Assembly: GCA_964404795.1 (NCBI GenBank)
Contig: CAYOLI010000001.1
Coordinates: 17,059-81,058 of the forward strand
Length of the DNA: 64,000 bases
Reading direction: 5' to 3'
Source: an uncultured Candidatus Saccharibacteria bacterium
GTDB lineage: Bacteria; Patescibacteriota; Saccharimonadia; Saccharimonadales; 2-12-FULL-41-12
Below are positions 30,424 to 34,546 of this stretch, in pieces. The notes beneath the pieces are model-generated. The model was not told the DNA's origin. It saw nothing but the letters and a program-made list of their open reading frames with translations, and ran no database searches. The position numbers and the translations under genes are program-made. Position 1 is the first letter of the stretch. The number at the start of each line of letters is the position of its first letter.

Positions 30424-31200
30424 CTACTTACAGTTGGGTTTCTTGGCATGCCTATATGGCATTATAGAATTGTCTTTGCTGATGTATTCATACTTCACAT
30501 TATTCTTGCCATGTCCCTTTTTGGCGTACCAATTAATTTTAAATACTCCTCTAACGTCGGTTGTAGCTTTGTCTTTGCAGTCAAAAGGAGCTTTTAGTAC
30601 TTTATTGATAGTATGCTCTTGGTTACCGCTGATATGTCCAATGTTACTGCTACGATGCCAGGTCTTGCCGCCATCGTTAGTTTGTTGTTGATAATAAGAG
30701 ATCCTACGATGACCATGTCGGTTGCATGCCTCAATTGAATCAAAAGCTGTACTTACTTTTAGCTTGGAGCTCGAGTTTTTTTGGTAGATAAACTTAGGTC
30801 GGGGGATTGCACCAGGCCCCGTTACACCAACGCCCCTACTACAATTAACGCTTGTGTACATCTTTAATGGTGGCTGAGGTAGGTCACCAAGTTGTTTAGA
30901 GCTTGCTGTTGCGGTTGGAGCATAGCTATCTTCTGCACTAGCTAGAGTAGATTCTGTAGCTACTATGCCACCGCCTATGGCTAGTGAGGTAGCAAGCGTT
31001 GCTAGTGGTTTCTTGATTCTATCTAGCTTATTAGTAGATAGCCCTTCGTAGTTAGTGGTAGTAGCAAGAGCAGTATTAGTATCAATAGTAGGACTATATA
31101 TAGGTAGTTCTGGATTAATAGTAGTATTGGTATTGTTATTGTTTAGTGGATTAATTGTTTCTGGGCTTAATGTTTCATAAGCTGTTTCTGGGTTTGGCAT
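30424..31200 (-). CDS. paralogue A: membrane-anchored protein with conserved N-terminal module and cationic Cys/His/Lys-rich C-terminal domain
   Basis: First about 96 aa about 90 % identical to 33548-34405 product (MPNPETAYETL..PETINPL...KLDRIKKPLATLATSLAIGGGIVATESTLASAEDSY); C-terminus unrelated, net charge strongly positive. Confidence 0.5.
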   Translation of the reverse strand: MPNPETAYETLSPETINPLNNNNTNTTINPELPIYSPTIDTNTALATTTNYEGLSTNKLDRIKKPLATLATSLAIGGGIVATESTLASAEDSYAPTATASSKQLGDLPQPPLKMYTSVNCSRGVGVTGPGAIPRPKFIYQKNSSSKLKVSTAFDSIEACNRHGHRRISYYQQQTNDGGKTWHRSSNIGHISGNQEHTINKVLKAPFDCKDKATTDVRGVFKINWYAKKGHGKNNVKYEYISKDNSIMPYRHAKKPNCK

Positions 31201-31283
31201 AGTAATTACCTCGATTTATTAAAAACTTCCTCTTTTTAAAGCTTTAGTTCGCTTATAATACCATTATGTATTGGCATTGGCAA
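30913..31283. repeat. about 370-bp duplicated block (promoter + 5' UTR + N-terminal coding module), copy 1
   Basis: About 90 % nucleotide identity to 34118-34471 by eye alignment. Confidence 0.6.
31255..31283 (-). promoter_or_regulatory. putative sigma-70 promoter of paralogue A (-35 TTGCCA, 17 nt, -10 TATTAT)
   Basis: Read on minus strand; same architecture and near-identical sequence upstream of paralogue B. Confidence 0.35.
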
Positions 31284-31313
31284 GAGGAGATTGTTGTTAT
31301 ACTCTAGATTAGT

Positions 31314-33536
31314 ATGTTTAAAAGAAAGATAGATGCTAATTCGGCCTTTATATGGCTGGCTGGATTTGGCGCAATTTTGAGCATTCCGCTCAGCCGTTTG
31401 TCGCACAGGCACGAGGCACTCTTTTTTGGGCTTGGGCATTATTCGAAATTTGCCACGTTAATTATTGGTCTGGTTCTGCTTTATGTGGCCAGCCAAGTCG
31501 CTAACCGAAAAAAATCGGCCCTTTATTTAACCGCTATTGGGCTGGTAGTGCTAATTGTGCTTGAAGTTAACCACCTAAAAAACCCCTTGCAACTGGCAAT
31601 ATACTGCGTGGCGCTAACTAGCTTGATAAAAGACAGAAAGCAATTTGTAGTAAGAAGCGACCCCGAGAGCATGCGCCGAGCAGTTCTAACACTGGCAAGC
31701 ATTGTTGGGGCAATAGTAGTTTTGTTTGTGATAAGTTGGGTGGTTATCGATCAAAATTATTTCGGCAAGCACCTTACCACTTCGGAGAGTTTGGCAGTTA
31801 GTTTAGAGTCGATTTACGACGGTCAAGTTCCACATTTTCTGCATCCGACGCGTGGTGATGAATTACTAATTAATGTTCTTCGGCTGGCGATTGTCAGTGG
31901 TGGCGTGCTGCTACTGGCAAGCTTGTTTAGGCCCCTTCGTTTAAGGGGATCCGCGCCAATTTGGCATGTTAACCAAGCTAAAAAAATCATCGAAAAATAT
32001 TCTTCTTCTAGCGAAGATTATTTAAAGCTCTGGCCAAATGATAAGCACTACTATTTTTATAAAGATAGTTTTGTTGCTTATAAAGTAGTCCGAAATACGG
32101 CCTTTGTGCTTGACGGTGCTGTAGGCAAACCATGGGACTCGGCGCGACTGCGACGTTGGTTTTTGCAGTACGCCGGCAACAATGGCTGGAATGTTTCGGT
32201 AATTCATACCAACCAAGAAGAAGCAGAAAGTTGGGAGCGAGCAGGCCTGCAAAAGGTCTATATTGGCTCTGAGGCCGAGGTAAATATTGCCGAATTTGTT
32301 GATAAAACCACTCGCAACAAACATTTCCGATATGTTCGTAATAAGGCCGAGAAAGAACAACTCAGTGTAGAGCGGTGGGATGCCCCGCTGGGTGAAACGC
32401 AGCTAGAGATTTTACGCAACATATCGGATAAATGGCTCGATAGTGGACGACGCGAATATAGCTTTGTTATGGGGTATTTTAGCGAAAGTTACTTGCGAGC
32501 GTGCGATGTATACATTCTTAAAAAAGCAGACGAGCCGATTGCCTACACAAATTTGCTACCCCAGTTTCAAAGTACAAAAACTAGTATTGACCACATGAGA
32601 TTTGTCGCCAATTTGTCGTCTGTATCGATGCACTATTTACTGATGCAAACCATCATAGACCTGTCTACTCGCGGGGCAAAAACGTTCAATTTGGGGCTTG
32701 TTCCTCTTTCTAAGCTAGATGAGTACGCAAAAAATATTCAAGAGAAATTGCTGTTAGTTGTAAAGCAGCTTGGCAGACGTTACTACTCGTTTGATGGCCT
32801 AGAGCAGTTTAAGGGAAAGTTTTCTCCAGCGTGGGAACCACGCTTTATCTTGTGGCAAGGTACTAGTGCGCAACTAGTTGCCTTAAGTGCCAACTTGGGA
32901 AGCGCTATTTCTTTTCCTCGCAAAAAAAAGGGCAACTGGGTTGTTTCTCTAGCAGTAGTCGCTGCTTTGGCCTATTGTTCTTTTCCTTTGGCAATTATGC
33001 TAAATCCGCAATATATCTGGAGCGGCTACGTTAGTTCGCTCGGCCAAGATGGTCAGCCATATGCATGGTTGTTTAATGCGTTAGATATTCTTTCTGGCCT
33101 GTTGGCCTCGGTAGTATTTACCTATTTATTGCTAAAGCGAAGGGCGAAAGATACACTTCTTAAAGTTTCTCTACTTGGCGGACTGCTGGGGGCAATCGGG
33201 GCGGTATTGGCTGCAGTTCTTCCCTTGCCCAATGGTTTTAGTGAGGGGCATGTTTGGAGCTCTTTACTAAACAACTCTGCTACATTATTGCACGCACTAA
33301 CAAGCTTTTTTAACAGCTCTGGATTTTTTGTTGCAATATCTTTTTGGGGAATTTACTGGTTCAAAAAGACACGCTTTACTTGGCGAACAATCTTAGCGTT
33401 CATTGCTGTTTTAACAGCAACTGTTGGTTTTGTTGTTGGGCAACTAGAGCCGTCTTTGGCAGGCGTTATACAACGCATTTATATTGTCTGCTACGGAGTG
33501 TGGCTAGTAACTTTTGTTGCTGATCTGAACAAGTAG
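31314..33536 (+). CDS. polytopic membrane protein with central MprF-C-like (DUF2156, aminoacyl-phosphatidylglycerol synthase) domain
   Basis: 740 aa: about 6 N-terminal TM helices, soluble middle region (..FVLDGAVGKPWD..., ...FKGKFSPAWEPRFIL) resembling the LysPG-synthase C-domain, then about 6 more TM helices. Assignment from motif memory, not from a search. Confidence 0.4.
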   Translation: MFKRKIDANSAFIWLAGFGAILSIPLSRLSHRHEALFFGLGHYSKFATLIIGLVLLYVASQVANRKKSALYLTAIGLVVLIVLEVNHLKNPLQLAIYCVALTSLIKDRKQFVVRSDPESMRRAVLTLASIVGAIVVLFVISWVVIDQNYFGKHLTTSESLAVSLESIYDGQVPHFLHPTRGDELLINVLRLAIVSGGVLLLASLFRPLRLRGSAPIWHVNQAKKIIEKYSSSSEDYLKLWPNDKHYYFYKDSFVAYKVVRNTAFVLDGAVGKPWDSARLRRWFLQYAGNNGWNVSVIHTNQEEAESWERAGLQKVYIGSEAEVNIAEFVDKTTRNKHFRYVRNKAEKEQLSVERWDAPLGETQLEILRNISDKWLDSGRREYSFVMGYFSESYLRACDVYILKKADEPIAYTNLLPQFQSTKTSIDHMRFVANLSSVSMHYLLMQTIIDLSTRGAKTFNLGLVPLSKLDEYAKNIQEKLLLVVKQLGRRYYSFDGLEQFKGKFSPAWEPRFILWQGTSAQLVALSANLGSAISFPRKKKGNWVVSLAVVAALAYCSFPLAIMLNPQYIWSGYVSSLGQDGQPYAWLFNALDILSGLLASVVFTYLLLKRRAKDTLLKVSLLGGLLGAIGAVLAAVLPLPNGFSEGHVWSSLLNNSATLLHALTSFFNSSGFFVAISFWGIYWFKKTRFTWRTILAFIAVLTATVGFVVGQLEPSLAGVIQRIYIVCYGVWLVTFVADLNK

Positions 33537-33547
33537 GGGCTGATCTT

Positions 33548-34405
33548 CTAACCCTGCGAAGCTTCTTGCTTGGCAGCTTCTAGTTGTTCTGGGGTGTAGT
33601 AGTACTGGATAGAAGCGTTGTCTAAGAAGCTTCTAGAATCTTGATATATTCCAAATCTAGATCTACCAGCGATATTTCTGATTTCAATCGGCTTATCGTT
33701 ATTCGGCTTAGGGAATGTTACTTTGTAATCAAAGCTTCTAACTTGACCAGGTTTCATGTTGTAGGTCTTTTTGTAAGTTTTGCCGACGCTAGAATAAAGA
33801 GAAAATTTAACGTGCTTTCTGGTTTTACAGCTTTTTGCTTGAACCTTGTATGCTACGGTAGTATCAATAGCGGGTACATCGGTTTTATAAGAGTTCCCTC
33901 TCTTAACCTTAACAATCGGATTAGGTCCAAGTAGTTTAGTTTGAAACTCTGGCTTACCATTCTTGCAGGGTTTGAATTTCTTGCCATTGATGATGGTAGC
34001 AGCAGTAGCAGTTGGGTTAGTACTGTTAGTATCTAGGTTGTTAGTTAGGTTATTAAACTTAGGTATTAATGATAAGTAGTTATTATTAACGTTATTAGTA
34101 TTAGTAGCTACTAAGGCAGTGTTGTTGGTAGGATAACTATCTTCTGCACTAGCAAGAGTAGATTCAGTAGCTACTATGCCACCGCCTATGGCTAGTGAGG
34201 TAGCAAGTGTTGCTAGTGGTTTCTTGATTCTATCTAGTTTATTAGTAGATAATCTTTCGTAGTTAGTGGTAGTAGTGGCAGCAGTATTAGTATCAATAGT
34301 AGGACTATATATAGATTGTTCTGGATTAATAGCTGTATTGGTATTGATTAGTGGATTAATTGTTTCTGGGTTTAGTGTTTCATAAGCTGTTTCTGGGTTT
34401 GGCAT
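33548..34405 (-). CDS. paralogue B: conserved N-terminal module with different Lys-rich C-terminal domain
   Basis: Start moved to MPNPETAYETLNPE by homology with paralogue A; ORF-track start at 34471 lies in the predicted promoter. Confidence 0.5.
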   Translation of the reverse strand: MPNPETAYETLNPETINPLINTNTAINPEQSIYSPTIDTNTAATTTTNYERLSTNKLDRIKKPLATLATSLAIGGGIVATESTLASAEDSYPTNNTALVATNTNNVNNNYLSLIPKFNNLTNNLDTNSTNPTATAATIINGKKFKPCKNGKPEFQTKLLGPNPIVKVKRGNSYKTDVPAIDTTVAYKVQAKSCKTRKHVKFSLYSSVGKTYKKTYNMKPGQVRSFDYKVTFPKPNNDKPIEIRNIAGRSRFGIYQDSRSFLDNASIQYYYTPEQLEAAKQEASQG

Positions 34406-34471
34406 AACTCTATTAACACCTCTATTTAAGTAAAGTGAGATAACTATACCATTATGTATTAATATTGGCAA
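34118..34471. repeat. duplicated block, copy 2
   Basis: See copy 1. Confidence 0.6.
34443..34471 (-). promoter_or_regulatory. putative sigma-70 promoter of paralogue B (-35 TTGCCA, 17 nt, -10 TATAGT)
   Basis: Read on minus strand; conserved with the paralogue A promoter. Confidence 0.35.
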
Positions 34472-34546
34472 TAGGGGGTTGTTGGTATCCGTATCTTAAG
34501 CTGTTAAAGTATCCGAAGAATATTAAAATACAAAAAAATAAAAACA

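Follow-up and report, generated by a model that had tools for sequence, protein, structure and literature searches.

What is an almost identical 5' part doing in front of two genes whose products are otherwise unlike? The question is raised by two genes, here called A and B, on the minus strand of a 64,000-nucleotide stretch of DNA (the window, to which all positions refer unless another contig is named) from an uncultured Candidatus Saccharibacteria bacterium (contig CAYOLI010000001.1, positions 17,059 to 81,058). A preliminary description of the locus saw in the pair a constant handle with switchable C-terminal domains, as in polymorphic toxin/effector or variable surface-protein families. 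The analysis reported here favours a different answer: on balance, A and B probably encode basic proteins that are exported and regulated together, serve at the envelope or in host contact, and have in common a cassette of promoter and Sec leader, homogenised by gene conversion.

A common promoter and leader in front of two genes

Nucleotide comparison resolves the similarity into three direct repeats (30919-31135 and 34130-34346, 217 nt, 92% identity; 31130-31201 and 34335-34406, 72 nt, 94%; 31258-31300 and 34446-34488, 43 nt, 84%), which, together with BLASTP, confirms the ~90% identical blocks first reported upstream of and within both genes. The N-termini of the two proteins share 85 of 99 residues (BLASTP, E = 6e-45), and BLASTP finds no significant similarity beyond them. 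The module, consisting of the promoter core and the first 93 codons of A or 91 of B, is ~92% identical in nucleotides and 86% in amino acids; a shared N-terminal part therefore stands, but at these lengths and not at the ~96 codons originally given. Identity is lost within a few codons past ...ASAEDSY in the nucleotide alignment, and the copies differ at 19 positions plus indels. A search for further copies, as the preliminary description had proposed, finds only these two in the window (tblastn). Among 1.84 billion representative proteins, an exhaustive HMMER search with A as query recovers module carriers in the A and B clusters only, each member being either A-type or B-type, and the suspicion of a lineage-specific module is borne out. 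The longest open reading frame (ORF) of B begins at a TTG at 34471 (307 aa) and runs through the promoter (34406-34471). On 23 contigs, gene callers place the start at the ATG at 34405, for a protein of 285 aa, and the longer frame is an over-extension.

Upstream of the coding part, a 26-nt promoter core is identical in A and B but for three spacer bases and occurs at these two sites only in the window, against 0 expected. Its hexamers, spacing and TG motif are kept in both copies, whereas the 5' untranslated regions (UTRs) have diverged: indels of 6 and 11 nt and numerous substitutions separate the two copies between the -10 element and the ATG. The near-identity first claimed for promoter and UTR together thus applies to the promoter core and not to the UTR. 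A Shine-Dalgarno-like AGGT/AGAGGTG also forms part of the shared module, which looks in sequence like an extended -10 sigma-70 promoter followed by a Sec-type leader. Rfam holds no RNA family matching the shared 5' region. An inverted repeat, AATAC-N6-GTATT, lies between the -35 and -10 elements of both promoters (31258-31283 and 34446-34471, minus strand); it could be an operator candidate, because this spacer repeat has been kept while the adjoining UTR has diverged.

The leader begins with an acidic tail of 55-60 residues that is rich in Asn, Thr and Pro and carries three (N/S)PE(T/L) motifs (31035-31200, minus strand, for A). The tail is followed by RIKK, a 17-residue hydrophobic core of Ala, Thr, Gly and Leu, then TESTLASA and EDSY (around the core, RIKK / PLATLATSLAIGGGIVA / TESTLASA|ED). 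The hydropathy maximum falls at residues 66-80 (Kyte-Doolittle 1.77 over 15 residues), in agreement with the acidic tail and single hydrophobic segment already recognised in the preliminary description. The two parts of the leader differ in how they have changed between A and B. Codons 54-93 (LSTNKLDRIKK...ASAEDSY) show no nonsynonymous and six synonymous differences, and the hydrophobic/signal segment is therefore under purifying selection. Codons 1-53 show eight nonsynonymous differences and one in-frame 6-nt indel against two synonymous differences, which suggests weak constraint on the long N-tail. Since neither copy has an alternative ATG, GTG or TTG between Met1 and the hydrophobic core, the acidic tail is translated. 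Cleavage is predicted after Ala-Ser-Ala, and the breakpoint of similarity lies 5 residues past this predicted site, so that the module would comprise promoter, leader and the first mature residues. The layout can be read either as a Sec signal whose n-region is unusually long or as a signal-anchor. Other types of signal were considered and rejected. A Tat signal is excluded by the lack of an RR motif, a lipoprotein signal by the lack of a lipobox (the first Cys comes after residue 119 in A and after residue 146 in B) and a sortase signal by the lack of LPXTG. For a type IV pilin (class III) signal, GGG|IVATE does offer a Glu at +5, but the hydrophobic stretch precedes it and a polar one follows.

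The arrangement is not confined to one assembly. The exact A protein is found on 21 contigs and the exact B protein on 23, from ENA, JGI and NCBI sources, and contigs that carry A and B reach 314 kb. In every fetched locus that is long enough, the gene order is M14 - B - MprF-like - A - p297 - p909 - pilM and the DNA matches that of the window at 100% identity, so that the same 7.2-kb arrangement stands in several separately deposited assemblies. An assembly artefact, that is, a collapsed or duplicated repeat, had been named at the outset as the finding that could overturn the duplication. The region does tend to break assemblies, and the short contigs L001, L086 and L088-L090 end in or near the repeat, but the recurrence of the 7.2-kb arrangement, and the 19 differences plus indels between copies that each have their own flanks, exclude an artefact and leave it a negligible probability.

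Two variant contigs carry mosaics that suggest exchange between the copies. On L001 (JGI 3300015610) the A copy differs from the A copy of the window at eight positions, all with B-type bases, in a single 42-nt tract with A-type sites on both sides; the amino acid changes are L45A, A46T and G53R. Such a patch is the signature of a short gene-conversion tract. On L096 (ENA ERZ15185955, 3413 nt; P0023), positions 1-1797 hold M14, the B promoter and a B leader that runs into the A domain, followed by p297, while the B domain and the MprF-like gene are missing. The crossover lies within a 41-nt stretch that is identical in both copies, and the structure is the expected product of recombination between the direct repeats. 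It represents either a natural 3.2-kb deletion between these repeats or a low-coverage chimera. The recombinants observed exchange leaders, not C-domains, and the strain variants fit a homogenisation of the module by gene conversion.

The predicted exported parts of A and B

The C-terminal parts of A and B each have a net charge of +18, with 4 Cys and 7 His in A and 2 Cys and 1 His in B; the initial estimate of a charge above +15, with four Cys and several His in one of the two, was sound. The exhaustive HMMER search with A returned 17 proteins. P0001 is a variant of A (99% identical) and P0002 a 123-aa fragment of B, while P0006 and P0015 were left out of the family on account of their long multi-stretch matches, which in P0006 fall on an Asn/Thr-rich tail. 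The remaining 13, of 169-246 aa, match the C-domain of A (E 4.5e-20 to 3e-4), and a profile search with an alignment of the family (A2) added P0018 and P0019 only. The result is a family of at least 16 members (A, P0003-P0005, P0007-P0014 and P0016-P0019), to which A shows 22-36% identity over the alignment and, over the domain, 44% to its closest members. Family members have four or six cysteines and basic mature parts (isoelectric point 8.3-10.4). A has the features that mark the family, namely four invariant Cys, a Pro, a Tyr, a G-x-R motif and a Trp in a domain of ~130 residues behind a predicted export signal. By its sequence, the C-domain of A belongs to a conserved, unnamed basic four-cysteine family, and it is predicted to hold two disulfides. 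The earlier statement that no family could be assigned is thus superseded as regards membership, but stands in that the family has no name.

The family has no match in Pfam, NCBIfam, PHROG, PADLOC or PDB. Searches of indexed homologues with full-length A and B returned the near-identical P0001 alone, scans of viral contigs with the A C-domain and with the B C-domain gave no match, and neither did tblastn of P0019 against plasmids or of P0014 against phages. Two kinds of genomic setting are seen among the members. P0009 lies on a 1.19-Mb contig of 46% GC (L082), where it adjoins, in divergent orientation, homologues of p297 (33% identity), p909 and pilM (73% identity). Because of this neighbourhood, which recalls that of A, an A-type gene at the pilus-adjacent position is suggested to be ancestral for this sub-lineage. 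P0014 and P0019 come from contigs of 61-62% GC, with XRE regulators, a TraG/TrwB-like coupling protein and a Replic_Relax protein as neighbours, and the best plasmid matches of the coupling protein are to Streptomyces, Embleya and Rhodococcus (31-40% identity). On the grounds of these neighbours and plasmid matches, the family is common to Saccharibacteria and to high-GC mobile elements of actinobacterial type. The high-GC members P0018 and P0019 (L084, 314-934) adjoin ThiF-like, XRE, coupling-protein and Replic_Relax genes; their signal sequences contain a lipobox-like L-V-T-A-C or V-I-A-C, and they may be lipoproteins.

The family also bears on the leader. Homologues of the A domain on high-GC contigs (P0010, P0012, P0014, P0016 and others) have short classical signal peptides, and these ordinary signal peptides, together with the four invariant cysteines, support the predicted export. 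Members with long N-tails (P0003, P0004, P0007, P0008, P0009 and P0011) show, by eye, a small-x-Ala sequence 8-12 residues past the core. The alignment of A with the distant members P0007 and P0008 starts at query residues 40 and 60 and runs from the hydrophobic segment on; therefore, the leader is probably native to A and was probably acquired by B. P0004, P0007 and P0008 have PE motifs close to their N-termini as well (for example MPEQEPNFPER, SPER...SPEV and MPEI). In such long tails they may be a short linear motif or a mere effect of composition.

The C-domain of B, which follows an Asn/Thr-rich linker, has no homologue in the indexed protein search, in PDB, among plasmids (tblastn) or among viral contigs, and homologues of B were reached through the leader only. 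Compared with B, the A-family profile gives an hhalign probability of 0.5% (E = 0.12), and against the family hidden Markov model (HMM) B comes 398th of 1978 when ranked with its own shuffles and scores no better than they do. At the level of sequence, the B C-domain is not a detectable member of the four-cysteine family, and the abrupt stop of identity ahead of C-termini with no detectable similarity, noted from the beginning, has held up. The stop codons of the two genes are both overlapped by the same 9-mer, AGGGTTAGA (30417-30425 for A, 33547-33555 for B, minus strand), which occurs four times in the window, always on the minus strand, against 0.55 expected. The flanks of the four sites show no extended similarity to one another. 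Its presence at both stops may be due to chance or may be a remnant of an old 3' duplication boundary.

A variable interval next to the pilus genes

A and B belong to a 6-kb insertion between the type IV pilus operon and ychF (Table 1). Downstream of A come p297 and p909 and, after them, pilM, a pilN-like gene, pilB, pilT and pilC; downstream of B, the MprF-like gene runs towards it. YchF (36520-37599) shows at most 72% identity to species-representative genomes, and its best matches are all metagenome-assembled genomes of Candidatus Saccharibacteria. Since A, B, the MprF-like gene and M14 are present in none of 80 ychF-centred loci of other Saccharibacteria, the region 30363-36519 is a lineage-specific insertion in a variable hotspot. 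The pilM-ychF interval (26743-36519 in the window) varies widely in Saccharibacteria. In L006 and L008 (~9890-10001) the two genes are adjacent; in L007 (6998-9935) and L019 (6410-10001) they are separated only by a p909-like gene and a gene for ~210 aa; and in L082 (3571-15228) about 11 accessory genes lie between them, including PIN and Phd/Fic toxin-antitoxin modules, PRTase and 6PGD.

Table 1. Positions of genes A and B, their parts and the surrounding features in the window
Feature	Position	Strand	Remarks
Gene A	30424..31200	-	258 aa ORF; shared leader, then basic four-cysteine domain
Gene B	33548..34405	-	285 aa from ATG; shared leader, N/T-rich linker, orphan basic beta-rich domain
Promoter of A	31255..31283	-	TTGCCA, 17-nt spacer, TG-n-TATTAT (extended -10)
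Promoter of B	34443..34471	-	TTGCCA, 17-nt spacer, TG-n-TATAGT (extended -10)
Shared coding module, copy A, codons 1-93	30922..31200	-	Acidic N-tail, RIKK, hydrophobic core, ASA|EDSY
Shared coding module, copy B, codons 1-91	34133..34405	-	From repeat, BLASTP and codon comparison
Predicted Sec signal segment of A, residues 61-88	30937..31020	-	RIKKPLATLATSLAIGGGIVATESTLASA; from codon comparison and hydropathy
Predicted Sec signal segment of B, residues 59-86	34148..34231	-	From codon comparison and hydropathy
A C-domain	30427..30873	-	Invariant C120, P129, Y139, C159, G163, R165, C208, W224, C257 (alignment A2)
B linker, residues 92-138	33992..34132	-	Asn/Thr-rich, low-complexity; predicted local distance difference test (pLDDT) below 50
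B C-domain, residues 139-285	33551..33991	-	Basic, predicted beta-rich, no homologues found
Lineage-specific insertion (A, MprF-like, B, M14)	30363..36519	.	Between p297 and ychF
MprF-like aminoacyl-phosphatidylglycerol synthase	31314..33536	+	LPG_synthase_C, C-terminal DUF998; divergent from A
Membrane-anchored Big_5 + M14 (MpaA-like) peptidase	34547..36496	+	Divergent from B

The MprF-like protein matches LPG_synthase_C (E = 1.6e-44), and the transmembrane region that precedes this domain matches MprF and LysX. Against NF033480 it scores 276 bits, below the equivalog cut-off of 600, and covers model positions 327-832 only; it lacks the flippase half, so that it is no bifunctional MprF, and has a DUF998 membrane domain fused at its C-terminus. 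The organism presumably depends on its host for membrane lipids, and for it MprF-DUF998 is an unusual fusion. A genome-contig scan with the protein gave no match, and a literature search for Saccharibacteria together with MprF returned nothing relevant. The position of A and B, beside pilus genes and bracketing an MprF-like gene, was described correctly for the window, but the MprF neighbour is missing from the L082 relative and from the high-GC members.

Large secreted proteins (689-1050 aa) are encoded directly upstream of pilM in the window (p909, 26743-29472, minus strand) and in L007 (7210-9279), L019 (6565-9156) and L082 (3648-6800). Their N-terminal parts are variable and their C-terminal parts conserved, and all end in (S/T)LPP(I/T)L, which may be a sorting or pilus-association signal; the p909 of the window has no Pfam match and the L082 copy no precomputed hit. 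The 61-nt gap between A and p297 (30363-30423, minus strand) contains no terminator-like hairpin on the minus strand. It holds TGATATAAT, a perfect extended -10 element 12 nt upstream of the ATG of p297, and because of this position p297 may have its own near-leaderless transcript besides any read-through from A.

Competing readings and known systems

The account favoured here would run as follows. B most likely arose by duplication of the 5' end of A, promoter included, onto another coding sequence. Gene conversion between the direct repeats would then keep the module ~92% identical, and the sharp boundary between A and B would follow because conversion cannot spread into the unrelated 3' parts. 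Both proteins would be delivered by Sec to the outside of the monoderm epibiont, the acidic tail of the leader remaining in the cytoplasm. Being strongly positive, they would be retained on anionic polymers of the cell's own wall or of the wall of its actinobacterial host, with the orphan basic beta-rich domain of B set on an Asn/Thr-rich stalk. There, beside the type IV pilus genes, they would act as co-expressed envelope or host-contact proteins. Several points weigh against this account. Each of the two strain mosaics comes from one metagenomic contig, and L096, at ~1x coverage, is possibly chimeric. The hydrophobic core of the leader is only moderately hydrophobic and a 60-residue N-terminal extension is atypical for a Sec signal, so that an uncleaved signal-anchor is equally compatible with both features. 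The representative of the B cluster, P0002, is a 123-aa fragment that lacks the C-domain, and the query of the exhaustive HMMER search was A. The structure models are of low confidence (pLDDT 43 and 37), which makes a remote homology between the C-domains possible, and the binding or adhesive role of A and B is hypothetical.

Two alternatives concern the proteins themselves. If the leader segment stays uncleaved, the two proteins would sit in the membrane by a signal-anchor (type II), with the (N/S)PE(T/L) tail as a cytoplasmic handle and the basic domains on the surface. This is a possibility to be held tentatively. The RIKK ahead of the hydrophobic segment agrees with the positive-inside rule, the copies have kept the first 11 residues and the PE motifs in common, with similar sequences near the N-termini of P0004, P0007 and P0008, and long N-tails recur among the lower-GC family members. 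The core, however, has only 17 residues, is rich in Ala, Gly, Thr and Ser and is followed by Ala-Ser-Ala; the high-GC members have ordinary cleavable signal peptides; and the excess of nonsynonymous over synonymous differences in residues 1-53 (8 to 2) suggests little constraint on the tail that would serve as the handle. The main alternative to the favoured account, though rather unlikely, is that A and B are diverged full-length paralogues, in which a whole gene was duplicated, the exported domains diverged under diversifying pressure and conversion preserved the 5' part only. Both C-terminal parts are equally basic, of similar size and predicted to be beta-rich. By eye, each contains two Cys, spaced by 39 residues in one and 44 in the other, with a basic stretch and (I/F)-S-(Y/L)-Y behind them, hhalign sets 'KLKVSTAFDS-IEACNRHGHRRISYYQQ' against 'DYKVTFPKPNNDKPIEIRNIAGRSRFGIYQD' of B, and the 9-mer AGGGTTAGA spans both stop codons. 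The hhalign probability and the rank of B among its own shuffles nevertheless speak against common descent, as does the absence from B of most family-invariant residues, among them the second pair of Cys and the Trp. Furthermore, the fall from ~92% identity to none takes place within a few codons, with no gradient.

Other readings assign the pair an offensive function. MprF confers resistance to cationic peptides, and A and B might be cationic antibacterial effectors that damage the membranes of hosts or competitors, the MprF-like enzyme protecting the producer by lowering its own negative surface charge. Both proteins are strongly positive and predicted to be exported, the synthase gene lies between them in the same lineage-specific island, and the relationship between Saccharibacteria and their actinobacterial hosts is antagonistic (PMC13622651). 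Yet no MprF neighbour is found at the other A-family genes examined, the domains are predicted to be folded, disulfide-bonded proteins of 130-150 residues and not amphipathic peptides, no toxin, bacteriocin or defence model matches them, and the L096 hybrid, if real, retains an A-type protein without MprF. The idea of self-protection derives from adjacency in one lineage and gains no support from the other family contexts; as a whole, this reading is improbable. A broader proposal is very unlikely: that the PE-tail leader is a targeting handle that routes interchangeable cationic effectors to the zone of pilus contact with the actinobacterial host, that the truncated MprF-DUF998 shields the cell's own membrane, and that the four-cysteine domain has been exchanged between host mobile elements and epibionts, the whole forming an epibiont-specific island of effectors and self-protection. 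The interpretation offered in the preliminary description, a system of polymorphic toxins or variable surface proteins that joins one constant N-terminal handle to many C-terminal cassettes by recombination, is largely refuted and now scarcely credible. A constant N-module with unrelated C-termini, and the apparent recombination at the module in strain variants, are what such a system would show. However, only two C-terminal types were found among the 1.84 billion representatives, both in one near-clonal population, with 64 kb of this genome covered; the locus contains no silent or orphan cassettes and no immunity genes; the gene next to A is p297, conserved in the relative L082, and the one next to B is the MprF-like gene, which converges on it; searches for known trafficking or toxin domains gave no match; and the recombinants swap leaders and not C-domains. 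The promoter and leader cassette on two exported basic proteins therefore remains the preferred reading.

As the reuse of a promoter and leader cassette with gene conversion is a known pattern, another instance changes little. A and B provide a clean two-member example in Saccharibacteria, within the candidate phyla radiation (CPR), with apparent traces of exchange at the population level. The analysis also defines an unnamed basic four-cysteine exported domain that Saccharibacteria have in common with high-GC mobile elements of actinobacterial type. Actinobacteria are known hosts of Saccharibacteria (PMC13622651), and the four-cysteine proteins are therefore candidates for host-contact biology. 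In addition, the pilM-ychF interval is marked as a hotspot for envelope-related accessory genes, among them the unusual MprF-DUF998 fusion.

Among known systems, polymorphic toxins (CdiA, Rhs, LXG, MafB) resemble A and B in having a constant N-terminal part, unrelated C-terminal parts and a sharp junction. The constant part of A and B, in contrast, is merely a promoter and an export signal, and there are two variants only. No recognised trafficking domain (Rhs, LXG, WXG100, CdiA/TPS, PT-TG) matches A or B in Pfam or NCBIfam, and no toxin domain matches their C-termini in Pfam, NCBIfam, PHROGs, PADLOC or PDB. The B domain is no detectable member of the four-cysteine family, whose high-GC members lie on contigs that resemble conjugative elements. 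A toxin system is not indicated, and a shared promoter/leader cassette on unrelated exported domains is already known from other bacteria. The closest analogue is the erp family of Borrelia burgdorferi (ospE/ospF/elp, with the upstream homology box), in which promoter/operator, leader peptide and first mature residues are conserved, the exported domains are of independent origin and the members are coexpressed and recombine frequently (PMC10016077). The comparison is one of analogy and not of homology. A and B have no sequence relationship to the erp genes and, unlike them, lack a lipobox Cys, carry an acidic N-tail of 55-60 residues, number only two and are chromosomal, not borne on prophage plasmids, in a monoderm CPR epibiont. 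Like them, they combine a conserved promoter core and leader with a breakpoint 5 residues past the predicted cleavage site and unrelated mature parts, and they may recombine as well, to judge by a putative conversion tract and a hybrid allele, each seen on one metagenomic contig.

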